Shown piece by piece: positions 2,546 to 58,252 of a DNA stretch of 64,000 bases; the first letter of the stretch is position 1; each line of letters starts with the position of its first letter. The notes beneath the pieces are model-generated. The model saw only the letters and a program-made list of their open reading frames with translations, searched no databases and was not told the DNA's origin. Made by a program: the position numbers and the translations under genes. Source of the stretch: Alphaproteobacteria bacterium (GTDB lineage Bacteria > Pseudomonadota > Alphaproteobacteria > UBA6615); NCBI GenBank assembly GCA_965205535.1, contig CBDBHH010000005.1, positions 2,317,773 to 2,381,772 of the forward strand. The letters are read 5' to 3'.

Positions 2546-2722
2546 GGCCGAAACAGATTAAAACAACAATTAAATCAAATGCTTGATATGAATTATTGGT
2601 CTCGATCAGCGCTACGAACCGACCTCTGCGGGTGCGCCGCCATTGTGTCTTCGCGGTCGCAGTTTGAGACACGAAATCGCATTGTGAAACGTGATACCGC
2701 AGTCAAAATGCGAGGCGAAAGC

Positions 2723-2914: not shown

Positions 2915-2974
2915 ATAAAATGGGACATCAGAGTGGTTTGAGCATTGGAGTCTCTGGCTCGTTTGTGTGATTGA

Positions 2975-3955: not shown

Positions 3956-4326
3956 TCCTCGAACTCCCCAGCCCCTGTCATGCTTTTTTTGAGCAGACGG
4001 TTCTCAAGGGTGAGATCGGCAACGCATTCCTTTAATGCCAGCGACTCCGAGCGCAGATCCTTCACTTCGGGCGGCGTAGCCTGCCGTGCCGTGTCACCAG
4101 ATAACCGGCGCTTGCCAGCTTCGAGAAATTCCTTGGACCAGCTATAATACAGGCTCTCGGCAATCCCCTCGCGGCGGCACAGCACCGAGATGCTTTCCTC
4201 GCCACGCAGGCCCGCCAAGACGATGCGGATTTTCTCTTCAGCTGAATAGGTTTGCCGCGTCTTGCGGCGGATGTTCTTAACCACCTTGCCGGCGGCGTCT
4301 TTCGATGTCTGGGGCTTCTTCGTCAT
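3952..4326 (-). CDS. IS3 family transposase OrfA (HTH)
   Basis: RRKTRQTYSAEEKIRIV...LKKS pattern of IS3 OrfA; ends at the AAAAAAG slippery site. Confidence 0.9.
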   Translation of the reverse strand: MTKKPQTSKDAAGKVVKNIRRKTRQTYSAEEKIRIVLAGLRGEESISVLCRREGIAESLYYSWSKEFLEAGKRRLSGDTARQATPPEVKDLRSESLALKECVADLTLENRLLKKSMTGAGEFEE

Positions 4327-4480
4327 CTCGATCTCCTAATCGATAAGATGAACCAGAAATCCTCCGTTATTCAAATCCTCAATTCTGTCCCACGGGTGCT
4401 GACGTCAGACAGGGATACATGCTACAGGTGTCGCAGTCGCCTACCAAAGGCCAAAATCGTCAGTATAGGGGGGGCATCGC

Positions 4481-5101
4481 ATGACCGAGTCCAGTCTGAG
4501 GCGCTACACAAACCTTTCTGCCACGCTTCATATTTTGCAGGACAGGAGTCTCACGCTGCTCAGCCCAAGTAGTTGGGATGATAGAAATGACGCTTATTAT
4601 CTGACCGAGTATCAAAGAAGAGTCCATGCGCAGTCTGTGCTCGCTCTTTGTTTTGCAGAAGCACCCGAGACCTACCACCATTGGCGGGTGTTTTCGTCCG
4701 GCTCTGGTGGCGTATGTTTGGAGTTTGATAAAGCCAAGGTCGAAAAGTGTGTTCAGGACGATGGTCGGTTTACATGCAGATCAGTTGATTACAGGACGAT
4801 TGATGCTGCCGCGACAAAGGGTTTTGAGACAGATCAACTGCCATTTGTTAAGCGGTTTCCTTACTCGGATGAGAAAGAATTTCGCATAATCTTTGTTGAC
4901 AAGGATGATGGCAAAAATATTCAGCGGATGGAAATCTCTCTAAATGCAATCAGACGCATAACGCTCAGCCCTTGGATGCCAAGACCCCTCGCAGATGCAG
5001 TGAAATCGACGTTGAAAGGTATAAAAGGGTGCCAACACTTGAAAGTTTATCGCTCCACTCTTGTCGATAATGAACGTTGGAAAAACGCTGTTAATCAATA
5101 A
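4481..5101 (+). CDS. hypothetical protein (206 aa) in a low-GC module
   Basis: ORF with G-rich RBS (ggggggg) upstream; visibly AT-richer than flanking DNA; no confidently recognised domain. Confidence 0.5.
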   Translation: MTESSLRRYTNLSATLHILQDRSLTLLSPSSWDDRNDAYYLTEYQRRVHAQSVLALCFAEAPETYHHWRVFSSGSGGVCLEFDKAKVEKCVQDDGRFTCRSVDYRTIDAAATKGFETDQLPFVKRFPYSDEKEFRIIFVDKDDGKNIQRMEISLNAIRRITLSPWMPRPLADAVKSTLKGIKGCQHLKVYRSTLVDNERWKNAVNQ

Positions 5102-5310
5102 CTCAAGTGACTCCAATGCGTGACCCGCGCATATGGTTGTGTGGCACCGGGTCTTCTTGATGGGATGTATTGGGCGAGATAAGGGGTCTTACGCAGGTAA
5201 AGTGGCTTTCAAAGAGAGAACCCTAAAAACAGTATATTCAATAGGTTGACAGTTTTAAGTGCCTTTATCAGGTGTCGAGCGTTCGCAAAAACTAGGAAAT
5301 CTAACAATCG

Positions 5311-6387
5311 ATGGATGAGATTCCCCATACACCGAGAACGGTTTTTGTAGATACAGGCGAATACCGGTCGAAGAATTTTCATTTCGGCAACCCGGCTTTG
5401 TCGGCATTAAAATCGCATGCAAAAGAAAGAAGGGTCAGACTAATTTCGACCTCAATCACCGAAATGGAAATTCGGCGAAAAATTGCTGAATCGGTGAAAG
5501 ACGGCCTATCAAAATTATCCGGCGCTCAGGCGAATCTCGCATCTCTCCGAGATGTGCCTTCCGATGTTTATACCTTCACGCGGATCAAATTTTCTGAAGC
5601 CGGGTTGATTAGAAAAGTACATGAACTCTATGAAGCTTATTTCCGTGATTGCTCCGGAACCGTTCTGGATGCTTTTCAATGTGATGCCGAAAGCATTTTT
5701 AACGACTACTTCCACGTAAAGCCGCCCTTCAAGGAAGGCAAAAAATCAAAAGAATTTCCGGACGCTTTCGTAATGGCGACGTTGAAAGAATGGAGCGAAA
5801 CTAACGGACAAAAGCTGCACGTGATTAGCACCGACGGCGATATCAAGGCGTTCTGCGAGGTGACAGATCAGCTAATACATTTTCCGTCAACCGAAGCCTA
5901 TGTGAACTTTTTGTTTGTTGGCGAGGATATAGCCAGCGCGGAAACGCTAACCGCCTTTAACAGGATGAAACCCAAAATTGAGAAACGAATTATCGACTGG
6001 GTTCCCAACAATTTTGGCGACCTCGGCTTTGTAATCGAAGACCAGTATGACGGTGAGGTTTCTAATGTTGATGTACACGATACGGCCATCGTTGATTGGT
6101 ATGTATTGGATGTAAGCGATGACCATGTTCATGCCGAGGTGAAGTTAGAAGTGGAATTTGAAGCGGAATTTTCGTATCCCGACTACGACACTGCCTCATA
6201 CGATAGTGAGGATAAGGTGCTCATACCATGGCGCGACATTTCAGGCTCCAAGTTGACGACAACTACCGTGATGGCCGAACTTCACTACAAGGTAGATCAC
6301 AAAAAACCTGAAAACTCTGCAATCGAATCTCTGCAGTTGCCGACCCTATCAACTATCGAGATTGATGTCGGAGACGAAGGCCTGTAG
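5311..6387 (+). CDS. PIN-like domain protein (DUF4935-like N-terminus), 358 aa, acidic C-terminal half
   Basis: The N-terminus TVFVDTGEYRSKNFHFGN...RLISTSITEMEI resembles PIN-like/DUF4935 openings. Low-GC context. Family assignment is from memory and not verified. Confidence 0.45.
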   Translation: MDEIPHTPRTVFVDTGEYRSKNFHFGNPALSALKSHAKERRVRLISTSITEMEIRRKIAESVKDGLSKLSGAQANLASLRDVPSDVYTFTRIKFSEAGLIRKVHELYEAYFRDCSGTVLDAFQCDAESIFNDYFHVKPPFKEGKKSKEFPDAFVMATLKEWSETNGQKLHVISTDGDIKAFCEVTDQLIHFPSTEAYVNFLFVGEDIASAETLTAFNRMKPKIEKRIIDWVPNNFGDLGFVIEDQYDGEVSNVDVHDTAIVDWYVLDVSDDHVHAEVKLEVEFEAEFSYPDYDTASYDSEDKVLIPWRDISGSKLTTTTVMAELHYKVDHKKPENSAIESLQLPTLSTIEIDVGDEGL

Positions 6388-6462
6388 CCTTTCCGATGAG
6401 AAATATGTCACAGTATATTACACAGTGAGTCTGTAACTCATTGAAAAATAACAAGAACAATA

Positions 6463-6520
6463 GGACTTAAAATCCCTCGGCCTCACGGCCTTGCCGGTTC
6501 AAGTCCGGCCGCCCGCACCA
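6463..6520 (+). other. tRNA 3' fragment (type II tRNA, Leu-like; variable arm, T-arm, acceptor 3' strand, CCA), putative island attachment-site repeat
   Basis: ggcctcacggcc (variable-arm hairpin), gccGGTTCAAGTCCggc (T-arm), cgcccgc-A-CCA (acceptor plus CCA) ending at 6520. No matching 5' acceptor strand (gcgggcg) or D-arm upstream, so this is only the 3' part. Confidence 0.45.
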
Positions 6521-6554
6521 AATTCCTTCTATTGGTACGCTGCACCCTGAAGGA

Positions 6555-7238
6555 TCACGCGGCGTCCGCAGCGTCGCGGGCGCGGGCGTTGAGGTCGTCG
6601 AAATCATCGGGCCAGTTGTCGGCGAGCCAACGCAGATAGGTCTTTATGTTCGCCGGGTCGATGCGCACGGAGCCCCGGATCTTGTCCACCTCGGGCTGCG
6701 CCTCGATCGGCAGCTTCAGGGAATCGTTGAAGCGGTTGATCATGTTGAACATCGCGCAGATCAGTGTCAGCTCGATGATCTCGGCTGAATCAAACTGCGC
6801 CTCTACGCGCTCGAACACGTCGTCGCGCGCAGCGGCGGTGTTCTTGGTCATGTGTTCGGCCCACTCGATGGCGGCGCGTTCGCGCGCGTCAAACAAGTCA
6901 GATGTCAGGTAGTCGTCGGACGAGATGGCAATCACCTGGTCGTGTGAGATGCCGGCCGCCTCACCGAGTGCGGTGTTGTGGGCGTAGCAATATTCGCAGC
7001 CGTTGACGTGGCTGGTCTTGATGATGACCATTTCCTTGAGCTTCGATGACAGGTGCACGCCCGGCCACTCGCGCTGGTTAGCAGCCTGGAAGGGCAGGTA
7101 CAGCATCGCCAGGTAGGGTGCATGCGCCATCGTGCGATAGGCGTTCGGGACCCGGCCGACGAGGCCCGTGACCGCGTCATAGAAATGCTTGAGCTCGTCC
7201 GGGGCATTCTCGGGATTGATGTTCGGTACGCGCGACAT
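6555..7238 (-). CDS. carboxymuconolactone decarboxylase family protein (AhpD-like, CxxC)
   Basis: HVNGCEYCYAHN motif and 227 aa length; strong RBS AGGAGAGAAAGC before the ATG. Confidence 0.8.
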   Translation of the reverse strand: MSRVPNINPENAPDELKHFYDAVTGLVGRVPNAYRTMAHAPYLAMLYLPFQAANQREWPGVHLSSKLKEMVIIKTSHVNGCEYCYAHNTALGEAAGISHDQVIAISSDDYLTSDLFDARERAAIEWAEHMTKNTAAARDDVFERVEAQFDSAEIIELTLICAMFNMINRFNDSLKLPIEAQPEVDKIRGSVRIDPANIKTYLRWLADNWPDDFDDLNARARDAADAA

Positions 7239-20378: not shown

Positions 20379-21014
20379 ATGCCAGAAGAACCCGTTAATC
20401 CACCGCCGACATCCTTCGTCGAATGGAGCGATACCGCGCGCACTGCGAACCTTCGTGAAACGCTCGCCGCAGCACCCGACGCGGATACATTGTGGGTGTT
20501 TGCGGCCGGGTCCCTGATCTGGGACCCGCGTTTCGAACCCGACGAAACCCGCATCGCCACGCTGTCGGACTATCGCCGCGCCTTCAGTTTCTGGACCATT
20601 CGCTCGCGCGGATCCTTCGAGCGCCCGGGCCTCGGCCTGGCGCTGGAGCCGGGTGGCACTTGTGAAGGCATGGTGTTTCGCGTGCCAGAGACGGGGCGCG
20701 ACGAGATTCTGGATGCCTTGTGGCGGCGCGAAATGAGCGGCGGGGTTTATGTGCCGACCTGGGCAAAGGCAGAAACCGACGCGGGCGAGGTCTGGGCGCT
20801 GGGGTTCGTCGCGAACCGGGATCATCTGAACTATGCGGGGCAATTGCCCGTCGAGACATCGGCGCGGATTATCGCTACCGCGCTCGGAACCTTCGGGACC
20901 TGCCACGAGTATCTCTCACTGCTGGTCGAGGCGCTGGACCACCACGGCCTCGAGGACCGAGAGACACGCGAGCTGCATGAACTTGTGCAGCGTGAGCTCG
21001 GCGCCGCGACGTGA
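20379..21014 (+). CDS. ChaC-like gamma-glutamylcyclotransferase
   Basis: WVFAAGSLIW motif and ChaC length; an alternative GTG start at 20319 is possible. Confidence 0.7.
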   Translation: MPEEPVNPPPTSFVEWSDTARTANLRETLAAAPDADTLWVFAAGSLIWDPRFEPDETRIATLSDYRRAFSFWTIRSRGSFERPGLGLALEPGGTCEGMVFRVPETGRDEILDALWRREMSGGVYVPTWAKAETDAGEVWALGFVANRDHLNYAGQLPVETSARIIATALGTFGTCHEYLSLLVEALDHHGLEDRETRELHELVQRELGAAT

Positions 21015-21625
21015 CCGAGCAACAGACATCGGCCGATCGCAATCGTGATGACATTTTTATGGTGTTGCGTGAGGTCGTGCCGGAAGCGGGAAGCATTCTG
21101 GAGATCGCGAGCGGTGCGGGAAAACATGCGGCTCATTTTGCCGCTGAGTTTGCCCCGCGCGTCTGGCAATCCAGCGAATATGATCCCGATCGGATCGAGA
21201 TCATGCGCGGACGGTTCTCGCGTCTCGATCTGCCAAATCTGCGCGACCCCGTTCTGTTGGACGTGAGTGCCGACTGCTGGCCTGTCGAGGTGAGCTGGTC
21301 CGACCCGCCGATACGCATGATCTACAACGTCAACATGATCCACATCGCACCCTGGTCGGCATGCCTGGGTCTTCTCGCCGGGGCGGCGCGCATTCTTCGC
21401 GCTGATGGCGTGTTGTTCATCTACGGACCGTTCAATCGCGATGGTGCGTACACATCGGAAGGTAACGCGGAATTTGACCGCTCACTGCGTGCGCAGAATG
21501 CCGAATGGGGATTGCGGGACCTGACCGAGGTGTGCGACGCGGCAGGGGCGGCGGGTCTTTCGCTGGACCGGGTCGTCGAGATGCCGGTCAACAACTTGTC
21601 TGTGGTATTTCGCGCCGCGAGATAG
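21011..21625 (+). CDS. DUF938 family protein (SAM-dependent methyltransferase-like)
   Basis: GTGA overlap with the chaC-like stop; EIASGAGKHAAHFA...IHIAPW pattern of DUF938. Confidence 0.65.
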   Translation: MTEQQTSADRNRDDIFMVLREVVPEAGSILEIASGAGKHAAHFAAEFAPRVWQSSEYDPDRIEIMRGRFSRLDLPNLRDPVLLDVSADCWPVEVSWSDPPIRMIYNVNMIHIAPWSACLGLLAGAARILRADGVLFIYGPFNRDGAYTSEGNAEFDRSLRAQNAEWGLRDLTEVCDAAGAAGLSLDRVVEMPVNNLSVVFRAAR

Positions 21626-21653
21626 AATGATAGCCCGGCTTGGGGAGGCCATG

Positions 21654-21997
21654 ATGACCGTCAAGAAACTTCAGAACGCTTACTATGTCACGGCAGACAT
21701 GGACCGTGCGATCGCGTTTTACCGCGACACGCTGGGGCTCGATCTGGCGTTTCAGGACGGTGGAAAATGGGCCCAGCTCAAGGCAACTTCGCGCTGAGTT
21801 CTGCCGAGGAGGCCCCCGAAGGTGCGGTTGGCGCGACCGTGGTGTTCGAAGTGCCCGATGCGGCGGCGGCGGGTGCCGCTATTGCAGAAGCGGGCGGTGA
21901 AATTCTCGGCGAACGGGACATGGGCGACCATGGCAAGACGCTGACCTTCCGTGACCCCGACGGCAATCTCGTGCAGCTGTTCCAGCGCGCGTCCTGA
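21654..21997 (+). pseudogene. VOC (glyoxalase/bleomycin-resistance) family gene interrupted by a 1-bp frameshift near 21785
   Basis: N-part MTVKKLQNAYYVTADMDRAIAFYRDTLGLDLAFQDGGKWAQLKA hits TGA at 21796. The C-part (NFALSSAEEAPEGAVGATVVFEVPD...DPDGNLVQLFQRAS) continues in the +1 frame (track ORF 21767..21997). Confidence 0.5.
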
Positions 21998-22034
21998 TAT
22001 CAAATTAATCAATCAAGAGTTCGAGGAGAGAGTT

Positions 22035-23021
22035 ATGGAGACCAACGCATTCCGCATCTACAAGTTTGGCGGCACCGAGGAGATGAAGTGGGAGACCGTC
22101 GAGGTCCCCAAGCCGGGGCGCGGCGAGGTCCTGTTGCGACACACCGTTGTCGGGCTCAACCTGGCCGATACCTACCGCCGGACCGGGCTCTACCCGATGC
22201 CGCTGCCAAATGGCATGGGCAACGAGGCCGTGGGCGTGGTTGAGGCGGTTGGCCCGGGCGTGCGCGCCCTGAAGGTCGGTGACCGGGTGGGCTATATCGG
22301 TGGCCAGACATTCGATGCGTATTCAAAACGTCGCGTGGCGAAGGTGTCGGGCCTGATTCCGCTGCCGAAGTTCATCAACGACCGCACCGCTGCGGCCGCC
22401 TTGCTCAAGGGAATCACCGCGCAGTATCTCCTGCGTGACGCCTACAAGGTGAAGCGGGGCGACACGATCCTCGTACACGCCGCCGCAGGCGGTGTCGGGC
22501 TCATCATGTGCCAGTGGGCCAGTGCCATCGGGGCGACGGTGATCGGTACAGTCAGCACCGCGGCAAAGGCGAAGATCGCCAAGCGCAACGGCTGCCATCA
22601 CCCCATCGTGGTCAAGCGCAAGGGGCCGAAGTTCGCCAAGAAGGTCCGCGAACTGACGGACGGCAAGGGTGTGCATTGCGTATATGACTCTGTCGGCAAG
22701 GAAACCTGGGAAGAATCCCTGGCCTCGGTTCGCCTCCGCGGCTCCGTCATCAATTTCGGCAGCGCGTCGGGTAACCCGCCGCTCACGGACATCGCTGCCA
22801 CCGGACCGATCGGCTCTCCCTATATCGCGCGCTGCGCCCTGGTGAACTACACGACCAGCCGCAAGGAAACGATGGCGCGCGCCGACGACCTGTTCAAGGC
22901 GATCAAGAAGGGCCATGTCAAAATCCGCGTGAATCAGCGCTATCCCTTGAAGGATGCCGCCAAGGCACACCGTGATATCGAGGGCCGCCGGACGACCGGA
23001 CAGACGATCCTGATTCCGTAA
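22035..23021 (+). CDS. NADPH:quinone oxidoreductase (zeta-crystallin/Qor family)
   Basis: METNAFRI... start with RBS GAGGAGAGAG; AAGGVGL NADPH motif; MDR superfamily. Confidence 0.85.
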   Translation: METNAFRIYKFGGTEEMKWETVEVPKPGRGEVLLRHTVVGLNLADTYRRTGLYPMPLPNGMGNEAVGVVEAVGPGVRALKVGDRVGYIGGQTFDAYSKRRVAKVSGLIPLPKFINDRTAAAALLKGITAQYLLRDAYKVKRGDTILVHAAAGGVGLIMCQWASAIGATVIGTVSTAAKAKIAKRNGCHHPIVVKRKGPKFAKKVRELTDGKGVHCVYDSVGKETWEESLASVRLRGSVINFGSASGNPPLTDIAATGPIGSPYIARCALVNYTTSRKETMARADDLFKAIKKGHVKIRVNQRYPLKDAAKAHRDIEGRRTTGQTILIP

Positions 23022-23045
23022 CCCAAAGCACGTGAAGGACGCGAG

Positions 23046-23924
23046 ATGACCTGGACAGACAAGAAGTTTGCCGACGTCAACGGCCGCCGTATGGCCTATG
23101 TGGAAACCGGCGACCTCGATGGCGATCCCATCCTGTTTCTGCACGGCAATCCCACGTCCAGCTATCTCTGGCGTAACATCATCCCCTATGCCGAGGGCCT
23201 CGGGCGCTGTCTTGCGCCCGACCTCATCGGCATGGGGGATTCCGAGAAACTTCCCGATAGCGGGCCGGACCGGTACCGCTTCGTCGAGCATCGCGAATAT
23301 CTCGACGCGCTGCTCGACCAGCTTGGCGTGAACGCCAATGTCACCCTGGTGATTCACGACTGGGGGAGCGGGCTCGGATTCGACTGGGCAAACCGCAATC
23401 GTGATGCGGTTAAGGGCATCGCGTACATGGAAGCCATGGTCAAACCGCGCAGTTGGGAGGATTTCCCGGAGCGTGCGCGGCCAGCCTTCCAGGCGATGCG
23501 TTCGCCCAAAGGCGACGAGATGGTGCTCGAGAACAACTTCTTCGTCGAGACGATGTTGCCGGGGTCGATCCTGCGGGACCTGACCCAGACGGAGCATGAC
23601 GAGTATCGCCGGCCATTCACCGAGCCCGGCGAGGCCCGTCGTCCTACCCTGACCTGGCCGCGCCAGCTTCCCATTGATGGCGAGCCGGCCGATGTCACGC
23701 AGATCATGGAAGACTATGCCGAATGGCTTTCGACGTCCGAGGTACCGAAACTGTTCGTAGACGCCAGTCCCGGTGCGATTCTCAGTGATGGTCCGAGCCG
23801 GGATTTCTGTCGAACATGGCCGAACCAGACCGAGGTCCAGGTCAAGGGATCTCATTTCATCCAGGAAGATTCACCCGACGAGATCGGCCAGGCGCTTGCC
23901 GATTGGCTGAAGGCTATCGGCTAG
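23046..23924 (+). CDS. dhaA: haloalkane dehalogenase, HLD-II (DhaA/LinB-like)
   Basis: LHGNPTSSYLWRNIIP, DLIGMGDS, IHDWGSGLGF, IAYMEAM and a C-terminal HFIQED-like His region match DhaA/LinB almost motif-for-motif; 292 aa. Confidence 0.9.
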   Translation: MTWTDKKFADVNGRRMAYVETGDLDGDPILFLHGNPTSSYLWRNIIPYAEGLGRCLAPDLIGMGDSEKLPDSGPDRYRFVEHREYLDALLDQLGVNANVTLVIHDWGSGLGFDWANRNRDAVKGIAYMEAMVKPRSWEDFPERARPAFQAMRSPKGDEMVLENNFFVETMLPGSILRDLTQTEHDEYRRPFTEPGEARRPTLTWPRQLPIDGEPADVTQIMEDYAEWLSTSEVPKLFVDASPGAILSDGPSRDFCRTWPNQTEVQVKGSHFIQEDSPDEIGQALADWLKAIG

Positions 23925-23933
23925 GCTCGCGCG

Positions 23934-24679
23934 ATGGAGTTTGACCTTGCCGGACTGGCGCTCGTGGCCGCCGTGTTCGGCGCTGCGGGAATTGTGAAGG
24001 GCGTCATCGGGTTTGGACTGCCGACCATCTCGATGGGCGTTCTCGGTGCCCTGATCGCACCGGATGTTGCCGCCGCGATCCTGATCATCCCGACATTCCT
24101 GACCAATGTCTGGCAGTCCTTCGCGGGCCGCATGTGAAAGCGGTTCTGCGGCGTTTCTGGCCGATGCTTGCGGGCGTCTTCATCGGCACGCTGGCGACCG
24201 CCGGTGTGATCACGGGCGCCGACCCGCGCATCGCCGTGCCGCTGATCGGCACGATGCTTGTCACTTATGCCGTGTTCGGGCTGTCGAGGCCGCGTTTTCG
24301 CGTTCCGCGGAAGGCCGAGATTGCCGCCAGTCCGGTCGCGGGGTTGACGACAGGCCTGATTAACGGTGCGACGGCGATCTTCGTTCTGCCGGGCGCCCCC
24401 TATATGCAGGCGCTGGACCTCGAAAAGGGCGAGCTCATTCAGGCGCTGGGGTTCGTCGGCCTGGTGGCGCCGCTGGCCCTGGCCCTTGGTTTCGGGCTGA
24501 ACCGGCCGTTCGAGCTCGAATTGTGGCCGGCCGTCCTTGTCGCCCTGGTTGCCGCCATCGCGGGGATGACCATCGGGCAACGCGTACGCGGCCGGCTCTC
24601 CCTCGCGGTCTTTCAGCGGTGGGTGCTGATCGGACTGGGCGCGCTTGGCGCTTCGATGATCGCGCGCGTGCTGGTCTGA
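23934..24679 (+). pseudogene. TauE/SafE (DUF81) sulfite-exporter family membrane protein, apparently frameshifted at ~24125
   Basis: N-part (67 aa) ends ...SFAGRM*. The remainder continues in another frame from GPHVKAVLRRF (track ORF 24134..24679). A single missing base in gcgggccg would restore one ~248-aa protein. Confidence 0.5.
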
Positions 24680-24682
24680 CAG

Positions 24683-24721
24683 CGCTTAGGTCGCCGCCTG
24701 CCAGTCGTTGCGCACAAGACG
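24683..24721. repeat. direct repeat copy A: decayed duplicate of the gloB 3' end
   Basis: tcgccgcctgccagtcgttgcgcacaagacg versus copy B tcgccgcctaccaatcgttgcgcaagaggcg (26/31 identical in the core, ~45 bp with flanks). Confidence 0.6.
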
Positions 24722-24740
24722 TAGACCGCGCACCTGCCCG

Positions 24741-26660
24741 TCAATCGGCGCGCAGGGTCTCGAGGATAACCTTGGTCAGCTTTTCGGACATGTTCGGCCA
24801 GAGATGGGAATGATCGAGCGTGTAGAGTTGCTCGCCGTCATGCGCCTGACACTTTCCGTCTTTGCAGAACACGTCGATCGCGGAGACGAACTCAACACCT
24901 TCGTCGCGCGCCAGTTTTGCGAGATTCTTGTCCAGTGGACCACGCGGCCCCTGACCAAGTGTCACATACTCCGGGTATGATTTTGTCTTGGCGAATTCTT
25001 CCTGAAGCAGCTCAAGTGGCTTCTTGCCCCACATCGGGCTCGGCCCGATCACCAGAATTTTGCTGTCGACGTTTTCCTTTATCCTTTTGATCGTATCTTT
25101 CAGTTCGTCCAGCTCAGACAATGTGCCGGCGGCAATCACGATGTAGTCGGGTTCCGTGCTCACGAGGTCTTCGAAAATCTCGTCGTTCACGACCGCGCAT
25201 CTGGCACCCAACTTGCCATTCTGTGTGCCAGTGAAATTCAGCAGAGGCTGGCACCCCGATATTGATCGGCTGATGATCGGCGTTCTAGGTGGAAGCAGGC
25301 GCGTGAAGCCCGTGTAGAGATGCCAGACATGGCTATCTCCCCAGAGAAAATAGGATTCCTTATCGAAATCGAACGCGGTCTCGTCAGCCCTGCAATTGTC
25401 AAAGAGATTGTCCTTCATCACCATATCGGGCGATCGATGGCCACAAATAGGCTGACCGTGACTGCGATATTCGTTAGGTGACGTCGCGGCGGTGTTCTTG
25501 ACAATTGTTTCGAACGGGAACCGGCCCGGGAGACCATTCGAGATATAGAAGTGGCTGTATGCGGCGAGTAAGGCCAGAAAGACTGGCGCTGACAAGATCA
25601 CAAATCGCTTTGTTGAAACGCGACGACGATTTCGCATTGGTCGTTCAATTGCGTAGAACGTCACCGTCGCCCCGAACAGCGATATTCCCACGCCCGCAAG
25701 CATGTCAGTATTTGACGGGATGTCGACATAGGTTCGGACGAATGCGAACACAGTGAAATGCCATAGATAAAGGCTGTAGGAGATCAAGCCGATCCATACG
25801 AGCGGCCGCATCGACAAGATTCTGGTCGAGAGGCCGTCAGTATTCGAAAACCAGATGACCAACATGGTTCCGAGGACGGGCGCCAGGGTGAGAAACGACG
25901 GGTGGCTGGTGTTCTCGTCGAAAAATGCGATCGATCCGAAAATCAAAAGAAATCCAACGATCGGCATTGCAAGATTGAGGGAGCGGCTACTGGCCCGTCC
26001 CTTTCTCAGTTCGATCCGCGCGAGAATCGCTCCCCCCATCAACTCCCAGATTCGCGTGGGCAGAAGATAGAACGCAGCGTCGGGGTCTACATCGCTTTCA
26101 AACTGCGAGAACAGCAAAGAGAGCAGGAAAACAACGGCAAGCGCGCCAGTGATATACTTTCCGGCAAACCTCCACATCGCGATGAGAAAGATCGGATAAA
26201 GCAGATAGAACTGCTCTTCGACGGCCAGCGACCAGGTGTGCAGAAACGGCTTGAGTTGGCTCGCCACCGCCAGGTAGCTGTTTTCTTGCCAGAACCAGAT
26301 ATTCGAGCTGAAGAACAGCGCTGCCAGCGCTGATCCGGCGTACTGCTTCATTTCGTAGGGGAAGAGAAGCAGCCATGCGGCGGGAATCGAAATCACCATC
26401 ACGGTGAACAGTGATGGGAGAAGGCGCCGCGCGCGCCTTAGATAAAAGTCCTTGATGGAGAATTGGTCGGCACCGAGGTCTTTCATTATCAACGAGGTAA
26501 TCAGGTAACCCGAGATAACGAAAAAGACGTCGACCCCCAAAAAGCCGCCGCGGAGAAATTTGTCACCGCTCGAGAAAACAAAATCGGCATGGAAAAGAAC
26601 GATCGAAATCACTGCGATCGCGCGCAAGCCGTCAATTTCTGGGCGATATCTCAACGACAT
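24741..26660 (-). CDS. acyltransferase family 3 (OafA/YrhL-like) with C-terminal SGNH hydrolase domain
   Basis: MSLRYRPEIDGLRAIAVISIVLFHAD... with ~10 TM helices and a C-terminal GDSH-type domain; lower GC than neighbours. Confidence 0.85.
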   Translation of the reverse strand: MSLRYRPEIDGLRAIAVISIVLFHADFVFSSGDKFLRGGFLGVDVFFVISGYLITSLIMKDLGADQFSIKDFYLRRARRLLPSLFTVMVISIPAAWLLLFPYEMKQYAGSALAALFFSSNIWFWQENSYLAVASQLKPFLHTWSLAVEEQFYLLYPIFLIAMWRFAGKYITGALAVVFLLSLLFSQFESDVDPDAAFYLLPTRIWELMGGAILARIELRKGRASSRSLNLAMPIVGFLLIFGSIAFFDENTSHPSFLTLAPVLGTMLVIWFSNTDGLSTRILSMRPLVWIGLISYSLYLWHFTVFAFVRTYVDIPSNTDMLAGVGISLFGATVTFYAIERPMRNRRRVSTKRFVILSAPVFLALLAAYSHFYISNGLPGRFPFETIVKNTAATSPNEYRSHGQPICGHRSPDMVMKDNLFDNCRADETAFDFDKESYFLWGDSHVWHLYTGFTRLLPPRTPIISRSISGCQPLLNFTGTQNGKLGARCAVVNDEIFEDLVSTEPDYIVIAAGTLSELDELKDTIKRIKENVDSKILVIGPSPMWGKKPLELLQEEFAKTKSYPEYVTLGQGPRGPLDKNLAKLARDEGVEFVSAIDVFCKDGKCQAHDGEQLYTLDHSHLWPNMSEKLTKVILETLRAD

Positions 26661-26752
26661 TCAGAACAGCAATCTCAAAAACCCACCAATCGCACACCCC
26701 GCAAGCCTATCCCGCTGACGTGTGTCGGGGCCAATCACCAAACCAAGCGGCT

Positions 26753-26792
26753 GCGCGCAGATCGCCGCCTACCAATCGTTGCGCAAGAGGCG
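26753..26792. repeat. direct repeat copy B: authentic 3' end of gloB (encodes ...SLRLLRNDW*)
   Basis: See copy A; the two copies sit 2070 bp apart and bracket the acyltransferase gene. Confidence 0.6.
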
Positions 26793-27557
26793 CAGGCTGA
26801 GGAACACATCCTCGTCGCTCGGTGTGTCGGGCAGGTCCGGGAACTTCGCCTTAATGCCGGCGACGACGCCCGCGCTGTCGAGGCGCATGAAGGTGTTCAC
26901 CTTCCGCTCCATGCCCAGCGTCGTCACAAGTGCGTCGTCGGGATCCTGACCCTCGACGTCGGCCAGAAGGGCTTTTGCGTCTGCGTTGTCGGGCTCGCGG
27001 TCGAGGGTGAACTGCAGATTGTTCGTGATGTAGTCATGCCCGGGGTAAATTCGCGTGGCGTCCGGCAGTTTCGAGATTTTGTCCCGAAAGGTCGCGTACA
27101 GCACGTTCGGGTCGCCCGAGTGGCAATGGCCCACACCGGCGTTGAACACGGTGTCGCCGCACAGCAGGTGTGGTTCGTCATTCTCGCCGAACAGCGAGAT
27201 ATGGATCGGGGTGTGCCCCGGGGTCTCGATGACTTCCAGGTCGACCGTGTTTCCGAGTTTCAGATGGTCACCCTCGCGCACGCCTTCGTCGATTCTCGGG
27301 ATGCGGTTGCCGGAATTGTACGGCGCGATCAGCTTGGCGCCAGTTGCCGCAATCACGTCGTCGTTGCCGGCGATATGGTCGGCATGTTCGTGGGTGTTGA
27401 AAACGCGGGTGATGTCCCAGCCCTTGTCCTTGGCCACGGCCAGACATTTGGGCGGGTCGATCGGATCAATGGCCATGGCTTCGCCCGTGTCCGAGCATGC
27501 GACCATGTAGAAGAAGTTGCGGCCCGAATTCCCGGTCCATATCTGTTCGACGATCAT
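26769..27557 (-). CDS. gloB: hydroxyacylglutathione hydrolase (glyoxalase II, MBL fold)
   Basis: THEHADHIAGN metal-binding motif, 262 aa, GloB-like C-terminal domain. Confidence 0.85.
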   Translation of the reverse strand: MIVEQIWTGNSGRNFFYMVACSDTGEAMAIDPIDPPKCLAVAKDKGWDITRVFNTHEHADHIAGNDDVIAATGAKLIAPYNSGNRIPRIDEGVREGDHLKLGNTVDLEVIETPGHTPIHISLFGENDEPHLLCGDTVFNAGVGHCHSGDPNVLYATFRDKISKLPDATRIYPGHDYITNNLQFTLDREPDNADAKALLADVEGQDPDDALVTTLGMERKVNTFMRLDSAGVVAGIKAKFPDLPDTPSDEDVFLSLRLLRNDW

Positions 27558-27636
27558 GTCTCTACCCCGTGATTTGTCCTGTTGGCCTCAACATACGCCG
27601 CCACCGGTACCTAGGCTAGGTTCCGGCGAACGGGAA

Positions 27637-28728
27637 TCAGTCGATCATGCCGCGCTTGCGCATGAGCTTGAACAGCAGTGGCACCAGCATCACCACGACG
27701 GTGATGCGTACGATATGGTGGGTCGCGACGAACGCCGTATCGACATTAAGTGCCAGCGCCACGAGGCTCATTTCTGTCAATCCGCCCGGTGAGAAGGCGA
27801 GCACGAGGGATTCGAACGGTATCCCCGTCAGCGCGTTCAGGCCGACGGCAAAAGCTCCTGTGATGGTCAGCAGAATGATCGTTGCAATCCCTCCCAGCCG
27901 CAGCACACGTCCCAGATCGCGGTAAGTCAGCCCCGCGAACCGCGCGCCAACCGAAGCGCCGAGCAGAATTTGCGCGGCGGCCACCACGATGACCGGCGGC
28001 GCGGCGTGCGTCAGGCCCAACAGATGCACCGTCGCACTGGCGACCATCGGGCCCGCCAGATGCGGCGCGGGCAGCCGCAGGAATCGTGCGACATAGAGCC
28101 CGACGATGGCGCTCCCGGCGAGCATCATGAAATCGCTGACGGTGAGCGGCGCCCCGTCACCCGAGAATGTCCGCAAGCCGGGATCGAAGTCCTCGATCAG
28201 GCGAAACAGGAAGGGCAGGATCATCACCACGAGGAAGATACGTGTTGTGTGCGCGACGCTGACCTGGCGTTCATCGCCGCCCATCGATCCCGTCAGCGTC
28301 ACCATTTCGTTCAGCCCGCCGGGCACCCCGGAAAAGAAGGCGGTCTTGGGTTCGAACCCGGCGATGCGGAAATAGATGTACCCCGTCACCGTGCTAAGGA
28401 GCACATAGCCGGCCAGCGAGACGAGCGTGATAGGCCAGAGGGCCGCCCGGTCCAGGATCTCGGGTGAGAACGCGCTGCCGAGCAATACCCCCAGCACGAT
28501 GATCATCAGGGTGCGCAACCGAACATCCATGTTCGTCTCGATCCGCATCAACGTGACCGACCCGGTGGCCATCATCGCACCCAGCATCCAGGGCAGCGGC
28601 AGATTGAGGGCGTTGAATATGGCGCCGCCGACAAAGGCGATCGCGACCGTCCGCATGAACACCGGCATATCCGCTCGCTTCAGGCGACGGACCGGGATGA
28701 TCTCTGGTGACGGCTGCGTATCAGACAT
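27637..28728 (-). CDS. AbrB-family membrane protein (putative ammonia monooxygenase-like duplicated AbrB domains)
   Basis: 363 aa polytopic membrane protein with two similar halves (PF05145-like). Confidence 0.65.
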   Translation of the reverse strand: MSDTQPSPEIIPVRRLKRADMPVFMRTVAIAFVGGAIFNALNLPLPWMLGAMMATGSVTLMRIETNMDVRLRTLMIIVLGVLLGSAFSPEILDRAALWPITLVSLAGYVLLSTVTGYIYFRIAGFEPKTAFFSGVPGGLNEMVTLTGSMGGDERQVSVAHTTRIFLVVMILPFLFRLIEDFDPGLRTFSGDGAPLTVSDFMMLAGSAIVGLYVARFLRLPAPHLAGPMVASATVHLLGLTHAAPPVIVVAAAQILLGASVGARFAGLTYRDLGRVLRLGGIATIILLTITGAFAVGLNALTGIPFESLVLAFSPGGLTEMSLVALALNVDTAFVATHHIVRITVVVMLVPLLFKLMRKRGMID

Positions 28729-29719
28729 CGAAGCGCTTCTCGATCTGGTGCTGGCGACCCAGTCGAACCGCGGTTTGTCCGGCAGTCGGTTGGCGCGATG
28801 GCATGATCAGGACGCAATCGTCATAGGGTGTGCGTATGGGAGACATGCCGTCGTGGGCGATCACCGTGCCACGATCCGCGATCACCTCCATGCCAACGAA
28901 AGGTTTGGTGAATTGCGCATTGCGATGGCGCGGAATGAAACTTCCGGTCACCTCGATCCAGTGCTTCGGCGTGTCGTCCGCCAACAGGTAATCGGCCGCC
29001 ACCGACGCCGTGGTCATGCCGGACGCCAGCAGGAAACGGTAGGCGGTATCGATGGCCGTCGTTTCCGTTTCGGCCTTCCAGTGCTGACCGCATTCCGCGA
29101 GGACAGATTTCTGCGGTTGGCCCGGGGTGTTGAACGGACCAAAGTCCCGCAGCCGTGTTCCATTGGCGTGCCCGGTGTCGCAAACAATCACGGCCGGGCT
29201 TGAAAGGCTGTGAGAAAAGCTTCGGCCCTTCTCGCCAGGCCCTGCGAGCAACAGGGCGGGGCTTTCCGATTGCATGGAGTGCAGATCAAGCAACAGGTCG
29301 ACGGTTTCGAAGAACGGTCGCAGAGCCTGTACACGCATGCCTTCAACGGATGCGCGTTCGACGGCTTGGTCGATGTTGGTACCCCAAAGTCGGTTCATGT
29401 CATGGTCGACATACCGCGACGCACTCGGGTTGTGCCGGTCGAATTTTTCATAGGCCACAACGTTGGCGAAAACCATTGAGAGCGTGCCGGAAGCAGGTCG
29501 TAAATAGCTGCGCAGGAGGTGGTCCAGAGCCAGGGCGCCCGATATTTCGTTGCCATGGGTCAGCGCCACGATCGCGGCGTGGGGCCCCGGGCGACCGCTG
29601 CGGAAGCTGGTCACATAGGGGATGCCGGTGTTTCCCGCTCGGTAAGCCGAAATATCCGGTGGTTCGAGTTCCACCCTGTCGGCGTTGCCGGCGTGCATCG
29701 AAGTGCGGCCGGCGCTCAT
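28721..29719 (-). CDS. succinylglutamate desuccinylase/aspartoacylase family protein
   Basis: AstE/AspA family Zn-carboxypeptidase-like motifs (HGNE..., ...DLH...); start overlaps the nadK stop (TAATG). Confidence 0.75.
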   Translation of the reverse strand: MSAGRTSMHAGNADRVELEPPDISAYRAGNTGIPYVTSFRSGRPGPHAAIVALTHGNEISGALALDHLLRSYLRPASGTLSMVFANVVAYEKFDRHNPSASRYVDHDMNRLWGTNIDQAVERASVEGMRVQALRPFFETVDLLLDLHSMQSESPALLLAGPGEKGRSFSHSLSSPAVIVCDTGHANGTRLRDFGPFNTPGQPQKSVLAECGQHWKAETETTAIDTAYRFLLASGMTTASVAADYLLADDTPKHWIEVTGSFIPRHRNAQFTKPFVGMEVIADRGTVIAHDGMSPIRTPYDDCVLIMPSRQPTAGQTAVRLGRQHQIEKRFDV

Positions 29720-30525
29720 TATGGCGCGAACTGTTCCTTGAGGATCCGTTCCTCGAGGTTGGTCTCCGGATCGAAGAGGATTTCGAAACTTCGTGTCCGG
29801 TCCTCCCGGATGCTGACCTCGACGACGTTGCGGACTTCGAAATCATCGGCAGTCGCGCTGACCGGTCGCTTCTCGGCTTCGAGAATGCGGAAGACGACGT
29901 CGGCGTCGTGGGGCAGCAATGCGCCGCGCCAGCGTCTCGGCCGAAATGCGCTGATCGGCGTGAGCGCCAGGATTTCCGCGCTGAGAGGGATGATCGGACC
30001 GTGCGCGGATAGATTATAGGCCGTGCTGCCCGCCGGGGTGGAGACCAGCGCGCCGTCGCAGATCAGTTCCGGCATGCGTACGACACCGTCGACCAGGATT
30101 TCGAGTTTGGCTGCCTGATAGGTCTCGCGCAGCAGGGAGACTTCGTTGATGGCCACGGATTCCTGAGTGCTGCCTCCGACCGTCTTGGCGATCATTTGCA
30201 GCGGATACAGGGTCACGGCCTGGGAGTTTTTCAGTCGATCGGGCAGGTCCTCGGGCCTGAATTCATTCATGAGGAAGCCGACCGAACCGCGGTTGAGGCC
30301 GAATACGGGCACGCTGCTGTCGATGAAGCGACGCAGGGTCTGCAACATAAAACCGTCACCACCCAGTGCCACGACCACGTCGGCATCTTCCGGTGCGACA
30401 TTGTCATAGGTTGACGTCAGGCTCTTCAGCGTCTCTTGGGCGGCGTCAAAGTTTGCTGCGACGAATGCGATACGATCGGCTCTGATTTCGCTCGCCTTGT
30501 CGGATGTTGCTTGGGACACGGTCAT
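29719..30525 (-). CDS. nadK: NAD kinase
   Basis: GGDGFML and NEVS...[18 protein letters not shown] motifs. Confidence 0.85.
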
Positions 30526-31095: not shown

Positions 31096-33516
31096 CTAGG
31101 CGCCGAATGAACGCAGCGTGCGCGCAACGTCACGGTGTTTGCCTTCGATCGCGTAATCGAGCGCCGATTTTCCGTTGCCGTCTTTCAAGCCCGCACGTGC
31201 GCCGGATTCGATCAGCAGACGCACGATCGTATCATGGCCGTTCCATGCGGCCCGCATCAGGGGTGTAAGTCCGTCGCCATCGATCACATTGGGGCGCGCG
31301 CCGGCCTCGACGAGCTTCTGCACGATATCCTTGTGACCGTTGCTCGCGGCCCAGGATACGGCTGTGCGGCCGTCATAATCCGTGACGTTGAAGTCTGCGC
31401 CCAGTTCGACAAGAAGATCGACAACTTCGGTTCGTCCGCGCCATGAAGCATTGATAACGGCGGTGCGCCCCGATGTGTCGTTGCCCTCGAGGTCGGCGCC
31501 GCGTGATAGCAATTCGGCGATCTTCGCCGTATTGCCGGCCGCCGCCGCGTCGAGCAGTTCATCGCGCAGCCCGTCACCTGACGAACCCCGTGCGCGCGGC
31601 TGAGCGACCGCATCGAGCAGACGTTTGTATTCCCGCGCCAATCGACGGGAATCGGCGATCTCTCTCGGCGCCATCTGGCGTTCGAGGACCGGCAGGATTT
31701 CATTCGCCTCTTCGCTGCCCTGCGCCGCGGCCAGATCGAAGAAAACATGAGACTGGACCGTATCCTGGGGCACGATACGTCCGTCGGCGAATAATGCGCC
31801 GAGCATGAGTTGCGCTTCCTCATCGCCGCGTTCGGCGGCGTTACGAAGCAGTTCGATCAGCTCATCGGGATCGCTTCCGTCGACGAGGCCGAGAACGTAG
31901 CGCTTCGCGAGTTTGGTCTGTGCCTGTGCCAAACCGGCTTCTGCGGCCTTCTCCAGAATTTCGTTGGTGCGCTGGGTGCCGGGATCGGGAACACCGCCAA
32001 TCGTGTCGAAGGGACTGGGGTCGGAAAAGGCGCGCGCGAATGTTTCGTCCTCGCCTGCGATTGCCGCGATGACCTTGGCGAGCGGGTCGTCTTCGCCGTC
32101 GCGCAGTGCGGGCCTGTCGAATTCGTTGGTTTCGGGCGCACGGAAAGCCTCGCCGGGCTTTACGGCTGCGATCTCTGTGCCGGCCAGGTCGGAATCCTCG
32201 GATTTTTCAGCCCGCTCCAGTTCGCTTTCCGGTGCGCCGTCTCTCACTTCTTCGGATTTCCGCGCAAGCAGAGGTGCGTCGGCCAGACCCTCGGCGACCT
32301 TTACCTGTCGCTGGGGGGTATCCTCATTCTGGCCGATCAGCCCGTCTTCCTGTTCGGTCACACCGGCGAGCTTCGAGCCGATGCGAGCCAAAGAGGTTCC
32401 GACTTCCTCGGGTTCTCGTAGTTGCTGATGGTCCTTGATCTGCGGTGCGGGCGTGAGGGCACCCGGAATACCCTTGAGCGGCACCGCCACGGTCTGTTGC
32501 GCCTGGGCCGTGATATCGGCCGGGATCGGTTCATTCTTTGGTTTCACTTCCGGACCGGCGTCGGGCAGGCCAGGCTGGCCGGTTGCGGCCTGAACGGCCG
32601 TGGTTTGTTCGGATGCTTCGGCCACGCCGGTCGGGTCTTCATCCTGGTTGATCGCAGCGGTGGTCTGTGTCGGGGCCAATGAATTCTCGTTTGCGACCGG
32701 CACGGTGTCCGGGAGGCCGCCCTCGACGTCCGCTTTCGCCGCTGCGGTGCCGCTGGTAGCTGAGTTTTCGCCGATTTCGGGGGCGATGGCCTTGGTCGGG
32801 TCGATTGTGCTCTGACGACCCTCGGCGCTCTCACCGTCCTCCGGGGCATCGGGATCGCCGGCGCGCTCTGCGTCGGGTTCGACAGTTGGTTCGGTTTCGT
32901 CGAGCGCGGCAAGCTGTGCCAGCGCTTCGCCTGCCGTCTCAGCGGAAATCGGTGCGGGTATATCGGTGGGGCCGGCTTCGCGTGCCGGGTCGGCCTCGAC
33001 GACTTCCTGATCGGGCTCGGGTTCGGGCCGGAGGTTAACGAAAATTATGATCTCGCGTGTGGCTTCACCCACTTCTTCTGCATCACCCGTGTCGCCTTCG
33101 TCCTCACGTTCGCCCTCGAGGCTGGCCTCCTTGGCCTGATCCTCGCCCTGGCCGGCGCCGCCGGCAGGCTCGTTCAGCTGGCGAAGGGCATCGGGCGAAC
33201 CGCGCCGCGTGTCGGTCTGGGATGATTCGCCGACTTCGTCGAAGCCGAAATCGCCGCTGGTAAGGCTGTCGACATCGTCATCGGGATCGACGCCGGAAGC
33301 ATTTTCATCCTCGATGGTCTCGCCCGGGGTGTCGGTCAGCGCGCCGGTCGAGAACTTGCTCTGGAATTCATTGCTTTCCTCATAGGACAGGACGTCGCGG
33401 GTGGCGCCGCGACCGAAACGGTCTCCGAAGGCCAGTTCGATGGCGGGCAGAGTACCCAGCGATGCTGCCACAATGACAACATGGACGATGCCCGAAGTGC
33501 CGGTCGAGAAATACAT
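31096..33516 (-). CDS. membrane-anchored ankyrin-repeat/Sel1-repeat protein with a ~500-aa acidic low-complexity linker
   Basis: N-terminal TM helix (GIVHVVIVAASLGTLPAIELAF), long D/E/P-rich region, Sel1-like repeat (AQTKLAKRYVLGL...GDEEAQLMLGALF), and C-terminal ankyrin repeats (GRTAVINASWRGRTEVVDLLVELGADFN..., GLTPLMRAAWNGHDTIVRLLIESGA...). Confidence 0.75.
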   Translation of the reverse strand: MYFSTGTSGIVHVVIVAASLGTLPAIELAFGDRFGRGATRDVLSYEESNEFQSKFSTGALTDTPGETIEDENASGVDPDDDVDSLTSGDFGFDEVGESSQTDTRRGSPDALRQLNEPAGGAGQGEDQAKEASLEGEREDEGDTGDAEEVGEATREIIIFVNLRPEPEPDQEVVEADPAREAGPTDIPAPISAETAGEALAQLAALDETEPTVEPDAERAGDPDAPEDGESAEGRQSTIDPTKAIAPEIGENSATSGTAAAKADVEGGLPDTVPVANENSLAPTQTTAAINQDEDPTGVAEASEQTTAVQAATGQPGLPDAGPEVKPKNEPIPADITAQAQQTVAVPLKGIPGALTPAPQIKDHQQLREPEEVGTSLARIGSKLAGVTEQEDGLIGQNEDTPQRQVKVAEGLADAPLLARKSEEVRDGAPESELERAEKSEDSDLAGTEIAAVKPGEAFRAPETNEFDRPALRDGEDDPLAKVIAAIAGEDETFARAFSDPSPFDTIGGVPDPGTQRTNEILEKAAEAGLAQAQTKLAKRYVLGLVDGSDPDELIELLRNAAERGDEEAQLMLGALFADGRIVPQDTVQSHVFFDLAAAQGSEEANEILPVLERQMAPREIADSRRLAREYKRLLDAVAQPRARGSSGDGLRDELLDAAAAGNTAKIAELLSRGADLEGNDTSGRTAVINASWRGRTEVVDLLVELGADFNVTDYDGRTAVSWAASNGHKDIVQKLVEAGARPNVIDGDGLTPLMRAAWNGHDTIVRLLIESGARAGLKDGNGKSALDYAIEGKHRDVARTLRSFGA

Positions 33517-48477: not shown

Positions 48478-48630
48478 AGACTAGGCCCAAATGGTTAACG
48501 GAATGTTGCCAGATTTGGCCAGAGCTGAAATTCCCCGGCACATATTCACTCTTCCTTAAACACGATGCGGGCAGAATTGCTTGGTTCTCAGGGGTTTGGG
48601 CGGTTTTCGAGGCCGTTCTCTCCCAGCATA

Positions 48631-52521: not shown

Positions 52522-52533
52522 GGGGTTTTGCTC

Positions 52534-58249: not shown

Positions 58250-58252
58250 GAT

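Follow-up and report, generated by a model that had tools for sequence, protein, structure and literature searches.

An old single-gene islet with an OafA-type acyltransferase between gloB and tauE in a marine alphaproteobacterium

Background

How did a single gene come to lie between gloB and tauE with a copy of the gloB end on either side of it, and is it still able to move? The question is raised by a stretch of 64,000 nucleotides from an alphaproteobacterium of the GTDB lineage UBA6615 (assembly GCA_965205535.1, contig CBDBHH010000005.1, positions 2,317,773 to 2,381,772 of the forward strand), which we call the window. Between gloB, the gene of a hydroxyacylglutathione hydrolase, and a convergent gene of the tauE/safE family it carries an insert whose one open reading frame (ORF) encodes an O-acyltransferase in which an AT3 domain and an SGNH domain are fused. 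An earlier note, made from the letters of the window alone, took the insert for the footprint of site-specific integration that rebuilds the 3' end of its target gene, and the acyltransferase for classic phage or island cargo. According to our analysis the locus is an old, horizontally acquired, single-gene accessory islet, which encodes no recombinase and gives no sign of present mobility. As to its entry, we lean towards an old Campbell-type integration, similar to that at an attachment (att) site, which would have duplicated the target and left a non-autonomous passenger gene behind; we put this forward tentatively.

In our opinion nothing at the locus challenges current understanding: it is an ordinary accessory-gene gain in marine bacteria, and it adds to two known kinds, the OafA-type acyltransferases and the genomic islets with att-like repeats. 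Its interest is that of a clean and datable case, in which a free-living marine alphaproteobacterium gains a one-gene surface-modification trait while both neighbours are spared by the entry, and in which the islet persists patchily in a clade with heavily recombining genomes. Since antigenicity and phage receptors change when surface glycans are O-acetylated, the presence or absence of this gene may mark ecologically different populations.

A true insertion at the end of gloB

Read on the minus strand, the locus runs from gloB through an 18-nt spacer, a 90-nt leader, the ORF of 639 aa, a tail of 16 nt and a second 45-nt segment to the stop codon of tauE (Table 1). A repeat search of the region returned a direct repeat of 43 nt (24682-24724 and 26753-26795, 79% identity, spacing 2071 nt). 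When it is read against the closest empty sites of relatives, the repeat unit becomes 45 nt; copy A and copy B then match at 35 of 45 bases and leave a unique insert of 2,026 nt (24725-26750) with one ORF only. The unit consists of the final 27 nt of gloB, that is eight codons and the stop, and the whole 18-nt spacer between gloB and tauE. Copy B codes for the true C-terminus of the enzyme (...SLRLLRNDW, then the stop), the HAGH_C match of gloB runs to the last residue, and the gloB orthologues, at 83-94% amino acid identity, all end in ...LRNDW and a stop. Copy A begins directly after the tauE stop and reads as LRLVRNDWQAAT*. The description in the earlier note, of imperfect repeats of about 45 bp copied from the gloB 3' end with copy B as the real end of the gene, is borne out in both respects.

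The best ungapped pair of 43-mers within 24400-27100 scores 34 matches, while 200 Markov-1 randomisations of the same segment gave a mean of 26.2 (standard deviation 0.9, maximum 29). A core of 19 nt, CAACGAYTGGYAGGCGGCG, has two occurrences in the 64 kb, both of them in the repeat copies, with 0.05 expected. Given a score so far beyond the randomisations and a core that is found nowhere else in the 64 kb, the repeat is not a product of chance. Seven of the ten mismatches between the copies are transitions (hand count), as would be expected of real divergence from one ancestor.

That DNA was inserted here follows from the relatives. In 27 related contigs (L001-L010, L082-L089 and L095-L103) the gloB stop is followed by a short spacer and the tauE stop; the repeat is there once, an acyltransferase is absent, and these single-copy empty sites establish a true insertion. 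Ten genomes whose GloB is 83-94% identical, marine Rhodospirillaceae-like or unclassified alphaproteobacterial metagenome-assembled genomes, have the gene order NAD kinase, (AstE), AbrB and gloB, with tauE, dehalogenase and quinone oxidoreductase on the opposite strand and a gap of 4-30 nt, free of any acyltransferase, between gloB and tauE; 17 further contigs from ENA and Logan show the same gloB-tauE arrangement. The closest empty sites, L095-L103 (GloB 94%, locus DNA 83-87% identity), run as ...AACGACTGGTAG, followed by GCGGCAGCCGGCGCGCGG and by the tauE stop, TCA. The comparison with relatives that the earlier note had proposed as its check thus agrees with an insertion, since no empty site among the 27 has two copies of the repeat and the gene is not a core gene of the locus.

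A chance repeat around a core, syntenic gene, or a chimera made in assembly, is in our view hardly credible. It is true that this GC-rich DNA (GC, guanine plus cytosine) contains many short matches of the GCGC type and that other short repeats in the region stand at chance level, but the score of this repeat lies far outside all 200 randomisations and the gene is absent from the 27 related contigs. As for a chimera, an independent assembly (L081, the second carrier, described below) has the same right junction, and copies that are only 78% identical would not be collapsed or joined by an assembler.

Table 1. The islet and its two neighbours, in window coordinates
Feature	Position	Strand	Basis or remark
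gloB, hydroxyacylglutathione hydrolase, 262 aa; target gene	26769-27557	-	PF00753 and PF16123 (HAGH_C)
Repeat copy B, 45 nt: last 8 codons and stop of gloB (26769-26795) and spacer copy (26751-26768)	26751-26795	.	repeat search, empty-site comparison
Leader, 90 nt, from copy B to the acyltransferase start; part of the unique insert	26661-26750	-	
Fused AT3 and SGNH O-acyltransferase (OafA/OafB type), 639 aa, intact	24741-26660	-	PF01757, PF19040
Insert tail, 16 nt, from the acyltransferase stop to copy A	24725-24740	-	first 7 nt (CGGGCAG) kept in L081
Repeat copy A, 45 nt: non-coding, diverged gloB end (stop TAG changed to CAG) and 18-nt spacer	24680-24724	.	adjoins the tauE stop
tauE/safE-family gene, convergent with gloB, frame broken	23934-24679	+	TauE Pfam match split over two frames
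tauE stop codon	24677-24679	+	

The tauE frame of the window lacks a single base near 24123 (TTCG-CGGGCC against TTCGCCGGGCC in the orthologues), which brings in a stop at 24135-24137, whereas the tauE orthologues in all relatives are intact, with 248 aa. The break would mark either a sequencing error or a pseudogene next to the insert.

The insert is foreign in composition

GC is 0.51-0.56 within the insert and 0.60-0.68 outside it, and at third codon positions it is 0.67 in the acyltransferase gene compared with 0.71-0.82 in its neighbours. If the acyltransferase is recoded with the codon usage of 37 window genes, its expected GC is 0.573 instead of the 0.534 observed, and this residual (-0.039) falls beyond the span of the 37 host genes (-0.030 to +0.036). 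The earlier remark that the gene is AT-richer therefore holds against the codon habits of the host as well. Amino-acid composition accounts for about half of the deficit and codon choice for roughly the other half. A location in the membrane is not the cause of the low GC, since native membrane proteins of the window have 0.61-0.68. The composition fits a partly ameliorated gene from a donor of lower GC.

An intact acyltransferase of the OafA type

Acyl_transf_3 (PF01757) is matched by residues 7-334 of the 639-aa product with E=2e-36, and SGNH (PF19040) by residues 418-632 with E=7e-24; a hydropathy scan finds 11 partly overlapping hydrophobic stretches in residues 9-374, as suits the AT3 membrane domain, which has about 10 transmembrane segments. 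The residues known to be essential in Salmonella OafA are R/K-X10-H in the first transmembrane helix, GG-F/Y-XGV-D, RXXR and the Ser/Asp/His triad of the SGNH domain (Pearson et al. 2020, PMC7448272). The motifs of the window enzyme are all present: R13-X10-H24, GGFLGVD at 38-44, FFVISG at 46-51, RRARR at 75-79, GDS at 441-443 and DHSH at 616-619. Its SGNH domain aligns with the structure of OafB (PDB 6SE1, E=3e-9), and GDS and DHSH fall on the same blocks there. With the two-domain architecture and the essential residues of OafA and OafB of Salmonella, its predicted membership of the OafA-type AT3-SGNH family, already suggested by the earlier note, is well supported. It differs from these relatives in that it is only about 32% identical to the phage and Salmonella enzymes, and in that no lipopolysaccharide (LPS), exopolysaccharide (EPS) or other polysaccharide genes lie within the 64-kb window.

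Enzymes of this family use acetyl-CoA in the cytoplasm and pass the acyl group through the AT3 membrane domain; their periplasmic SGNH domain then acylates a surface glycan (LPS O-antigen, capsule or EPS) or peptidoglycan. Judging by the family, the window enzyme may act on such a substrate and so alter surface and phage-receptor chemistry.

Its relatives are remote. From end to end it aligns at 32-35% identity with O-antigen acetylases of Salmonella and Pseudomonas phages and with acyltransferases on Roseobacter plasmids. The nearest full-length homologues, at 41-43%, occur in genomes of about 44% GC, where they are orphans among housekeeping genes, with no gloB, phage genes or polysaccharide cluster beside them; for the AT3 domain alone, other homologues reach at most 58%. 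Searches with the full-length protein and with its N-terminal half returned, beyond the protein P0001 of L081 (about 81%), nothing above 43% over the full length. There were no relatives in the JGI metagenomes when these were searched with peptide patterns, none in a scan of viral contigs, and no close relative among phages or plasmids; an exact look-up of the window acyltransferase and gloB proteins gave no record. Two further contigs, L090 and L091, had been picked up by a degenerate DNA pattern for the conserved C-terminus, but these are chance matches without homology.

The idea of classic phage cargo is consequently acceptable at the level of the family and not for this gene in particular, which has no close phage, plasmid or viral relative. 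The search for the same acyltransferase on prophages, which the earlier note recommended, yielded best phage matches of 32-33% and therefore did not find it. A prophage or a phage moron was rejected for the same reason, and also because no viral contig matched and no phage structural, lysis or regulatory genes adjoin the acyltransferase, the insert being a single ORF.

As to expression, promoter-like or terminator-like sites were sought in the leader and none was found, nor is its fold significant; a terminator after gloB was sought with the same outcome. Neither junction has a terminator or a significant RNA fold (z-scores near zero), and an Rfam scan and a tRNA scan gave no match. With no promoter-like site in the leader and no terminator behind gloB, read-through from gloB is the likeliest route of expression, and the acyltransferase is probably co-transcribed with gloB.

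A second carrier and the age of the islet

The sole close relative of the acyltransferase in 5.8 billion proteins is P0001, with 81% identity. Its Logan contig, L081, begins inside the acyltransferase gene and runs via a shorter copy A (TGCGGCAACGACTGGTAGGCGGCGG, with the stop TAG intact) into tauE, dehalogenase and oxidoreductase genes. On reading by eye, nucleotides 1-36 of L081 match an Illumina adapter (CTTTCCCTACACGACGCTCTTCC...); since the contig apparently starts with adapter, that start would be an artefact of assembly and not a biological end.

Window and L081 are colinear, with 77.8% identity over 5.2 kb. Between their acyltransferase genes the nonsynonymous divergence (dN) is 0.117, the synonymous divergence (dS) 0.68 and dN/dS 0.17. 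Ordinary orthologues of the window and its closest empty-site relatives have a dS of about 0.55-0.86, so that the value for the acyltransferase is that of a typical orthologue, and the insert is old and no recent arrival. The low dN/dS indicates a functional gene under purifying selection. Synonymous sites in the last 50 codons are conserved at 36 of 46 compared with 150 of 231 elsewhere, which is not significant (Fisher p=0.087). Between the two carriers the 19-nt core of copy A has a single difference, although they agree at no more than 66% of third codon positions; at the left joint of that copy they differ by 11-12 nt.

Three observations could be taken for independent site-specific entry into two lineages. 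The right-flank tree places L081 beside the empty-site contigs L002 and L001 (92-93% bootstrap) and the window elsewhere. Between the two carriers the acyltransferase has a lower dS than three of four right-flank genes (0.75-1.38), and tauE, the oxidoreductase and DUF938, at 1.15-1.38, all exceed it. Finally, precisely at copy A the identity of window and L081, 93% before, falls to about 55-65%. We dropped this idea, because a mosaic of the right flank explains most of it. When 20500-30525 of the window is compared with L001, L002, L003, L082 and L095, the tauE gene has a dS of only 0.30 to that of L095 while neighbouring genes have 0.56-0.86; the window tauE, quinone oxidoreductase and DUF938 genes are at 1.0-1.6 to L001 and L002; the quinone oxidoreductase is near that of L003 (0.69); and the window genes on the side of gloB are equally far from those of L001, L002 and L095 (about 0.6-0.9). 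Given such a mosaic, the discontinuity beside copy A reflects exchange of tauE and not necessarily the entry of a cassette. The distribution of the islet can be explained by one old gain with later losses or replacement by empty alleles, or else by an early transfer, and the data fit either.

How the gene entered

In the explanation that we prefer, 2.03 kb of DNA from a lower-GC donor, with one AT3-SGNH gene, would have entered the convergent gloB/tauE junction through one reciprocal Campbell-type crossover between the chromosome and a circular DNA that already bore this site. A recombinase acting in trans (att-like) or RecA working on short homology could have catalysed it. In the form of a circle, the islet would read ...CGGGCAGGTGCGCGGT, the 45-nt unit and CCGCTTGGTTTGG... 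across its junction. The crossover would have left the common 45 bp as a direct repeat on both sides and, because of this shared segment, gloB would keep its conserved C-terminus and tauE would be untouched by the entry. Afterwards the gene would have become a resident under purifying selection, probably read through from gloB, and in related lineages the islet would have been lost or never fixed, by deletion between the repeats or by a swap for empty alleles.

A regenerated 3' end of a conserved target gene is the classical signature of site-specific integration. Here the C-terminus of the target is regenerated, the length of the repeat is typical and the insert is foreign, all of which speaks for a crossover of the att-like or Campbell type.

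The spacer halves of the repeat tell where the duplicated DNA came from. Between copies A and B they match at 14 of 18 positions; against the local empty-site spacer of the closest relatives they match at 12 and 13 of 18 (13 for copy B), and the spacers of remoter relatives allow no alignment. Since both halves resemble the local spacer, the duplicated DNA is local, of this lineage or a very close one, and does not come from a distant donor. The incoming circle would then have arisen from this very site in a close relative, unless the duplicate was produced on the spot.

The latter alternative would dispense with circle and att site: the target would have been duplicated in situ at insertion, by fill-in of a long staggered break or by template switching at a collapsed fork. 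Both copies do look locally descended, by the spacer counts just given, and the insert is minimal, without element-like ends, the inverted repeats at its ends being at background. However, we know of no established mechanism by which bacteria duplicate 45 bp on capture of foreign DNA, and an in-situ duplication would not explain why the copy-A core is conserved between lineages. We regard such an origin as improbable.

Several observations weigh against our preferred crossover and should be considered together. The insert contains no integrase, no excisionase and no remnant of either. It is also very tight (leader, ORF and short tail), more so than is usual in decayed integrative elements. The protein, phage, plasmid, viral and metagenome searches brought up no pool of related cassettes. 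A second copy of the gloB 3' end was not found within 6 kb downstream of gloB at any of 80 loci from other genomes (the best, 28 of 43, is background), so gloB is no demonstrated attachment site. The longest exact run common to the two copies has 10 nt (TGCGCAACGA). Insert-bearing sequences are two only, the window and L081, and the left junction is known from the window alone. The copies differ by 22%, while a rough neutral estimate for a duplication that dates back to the coalescence of the acyltransferase alleles is about 38%, and the copy-A core is nearly identical in window and L081 (1 of 19). A model with one event explains neither this divergence nor the conserved core unless gene conversion, recombinational refreshing or functional constraint is added. 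Refreshing of copy A by empty alleles, through a crossover inside copy A, would explain the divergence, the core and the difference in the left joint, and functional constraint on an att site would likewise explain these three points. Within a 27-nt core of the repeat, three C/T transitions are the sole differences between the copies, and together with the 10-nt exact run this fits an old att site or plain decay.

An unlikely, though by no means far-fetched, rival is an origin in two steps. A fragment would first have joined the 18-nt spacer at the tauE stop illegitimately, without duplication, and copy A would have been added later, perhaps independently in the two lineages, by homology-facilitated illegitimate recombination: an incoming empty-site allele would have undergone homologous recombination within tauE and an illegitimate joining at the cassette end. 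The exchange of the window tauE with an L095-like empty-site lineage, visible in the low dS, suits this well, as the left end of the exchanged tract must fall at or beside copy A. Furthermore, copy A has 11 differences in 45 positions (hand count) to the gloB end and spacer of L095, about what a dS of 0.30 plus neutral decay would give, its left joint is not the same in the two carriers, and the overly fresh core of copy A would be accounted for. On the other hand, the model calls for two rare illegitimate joints, or for a single one that predates the split of the lineages and so takes away its advantage; replacement by full homology, with deletion of the insert, is far likelier than a replacement that keeps it; the difference of 11-12 nt at the joint can be a plain deletion; and the sequences are too short for such divergence arithmetic to discriminate.

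The earlier note left open whether the element is a remnant or was mobilised in trans. We favour the remnant, a fossil, over the trans-mobilised reading because the alleles are old and no related cassette was found in the collections searched. In its strongest form the trans-mobilised reading would make the islet an active or recently active non-autonomous cassette, comparable to a satellite or a cis-mobilizable element (CIME), with functional attL and attR in the gloB 3' end and a tyrosine recombinase supplied in trans, which would excise it and insert it into vacant gloB ends of related lineages. The repeat does regenerate a conserved gene end, the carriers are not sisters on the flank tree, three of the four right-flank genes have a higher dS between the carriers than the acyltransferase, and the 19-nt core of copy A is kept between them while the adjoining spacer is not. 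But the low dS of the acyltransferase and the drop in identity result largely from the recombinant right flank of the window, and alleles with a dS of 0.68 are as old as the lineages, which leaves no recent transfer. Moreover, the ORFs scanned in the 64 kb include no integrase, none of the 80 gloB ends has a second occupant, viral, plasmid and metagenome collections hold no related cassette, and the window copy A has lost its stop codon and has ten mismatches to copy B. This possibility therefore seems to us quite unlikely.

We would give little credence, too, to the 45-bp repeats as working att sites of an integrase-less single-gene cassette that targets the gloB 3' end. Either RecA, with the homology that the cassette carries, or a recombinase encoded elsewhere would move such a cassette among related lineages of marine alphaproteobacteria, and the conserved 19-nt core of copy A would be its functional site. 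Were this so, the islet would be a minimal trans-mobilised cassette that uses the end of a protein-coding gene, which present evidence does not favour. Thus, of the earlier claim of site-specific integration the regenerated gene end stands, and the mechanism becomes one of several that fit, no gloB-3' element having been found at the 80 loci.

Relation to known mobile elements

The earlier statement that no integrase remains is confirmed for the insert and for the 39 window ORFs scanned against Pfam, which contain no recombinase or integrase. A transposon or insertion sequence was rejected, because the insert has no transposase and the duplication is 45 nt and not 2-15 nt. Inverted repeats near its ends, including one of 17 nt, are no better than 11 other pairs in the region and stand at chance level. 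An integron cassette was rejected as well: folds of the 3' junction on both strands (z from -0.3 to +1.1) show no attC-like hairpin, and Rfam gives no match.

Of the known elements, the CIMEs are decayed integrative elements with attL and attR in the 3' end of a target gene, which have lost integrase and transfer genes (PMC5704250). The islet resembles them in that its repeats include a protein-coding 3' end, the gene is regenerated, no recombinase is present and relatives have empty sites. It differs in that it has no known gloB-targeting parent or tandem partner (80 loci) and no pseudogene debris, in that its repeats have diverged by 22%, and in that the repeat takes in local non-coding spacer.

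Minimal mobile elements are flexible islets swapped by homologous recombination between conserved genes (Saunders & Snyder 2002, cited in PMC3787668). The slot between gloB and the dehalogenase gene has their features, namely variable content, absence of mobility genes and mosaic flanks. Such elements are not defined by flanking direct repeats of a target, whereas the islet has a 45-bp duplication that marks a distinct integration event. The likeness is thus real, and it describes how the islet is kept and lost, not its first entry.

Tycheposon-type and other integrase-borne cargo islands of marine bacteria are flanked by partial copies of their target, and integrase-less remnants of them have been described (bioRxiv 10.1101/2020.12.28.424599). 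What the islet shares with them is a marine host and cargo beside which part of the target gene's end is repeated; these islands target tRNA genes and carry tyrosine recombinases, and the islet has neither tRNA nor recombinase.

The slot itself varies beyond the islet. Between gloB and the haloalkane-dehalogenase-like gene some relatives have only tauE and others no gene at all, a 167-aa ORF, or four genes, one of them for a LysR regulator: L011-L013 have no tauE, L016 has the 167-aa ORF, and L018 has about 4.3 kb with a cupin-like ORF, the LysR regulator and others. Downstream of gloB in L011-L018 there are no gloB-3' repeats.

Other observations in the window

Two kilobases from the insert, between the NAD kinase and AbrB genes, a gene of the AstE/AspA family (28721-29719, minus strand) represents another presence/absence polymorphism, as it is missing or fragmentary in L001, L003, L004, L012, L013 and L015.

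The sole mobility gene in the window scan is an IS3-type DDE transposase (2975-4326), 20 kb from the insert. It lies, as a pair of genes on the minus strand (orfA 3952-4326, orfB 2975-3955), in a second and stronger low-GC island at about 2000-7000, with GC 0.45-0.55, together with a PIN_12-domain protein (5311-6387) and ORFs without a Pfam match, two of which fall below the host codon expectation by 0.09 and 0.11 in GC (residuals -0.09 and -0.11). A 23-nt repeat that flanks this island (2844/6859) was rejected, being at chance level by estimate.

An 806-aa protein with multiple ankyrin repeats (31096-33516, minus strand) is conserved in relatives such as L084; many ankyrin repeats are unusual for a free-living marine alphaproteobacterium. 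At the other end of the window, 48565-64000 is a flagellar cluster with a FliI-like ATPase, an FlhF-like GTPase, FlhA, a sigma-54 activator, MotA, FliF, FlgE and FlgD. Flagella, like surface glycans, are phage receptors.

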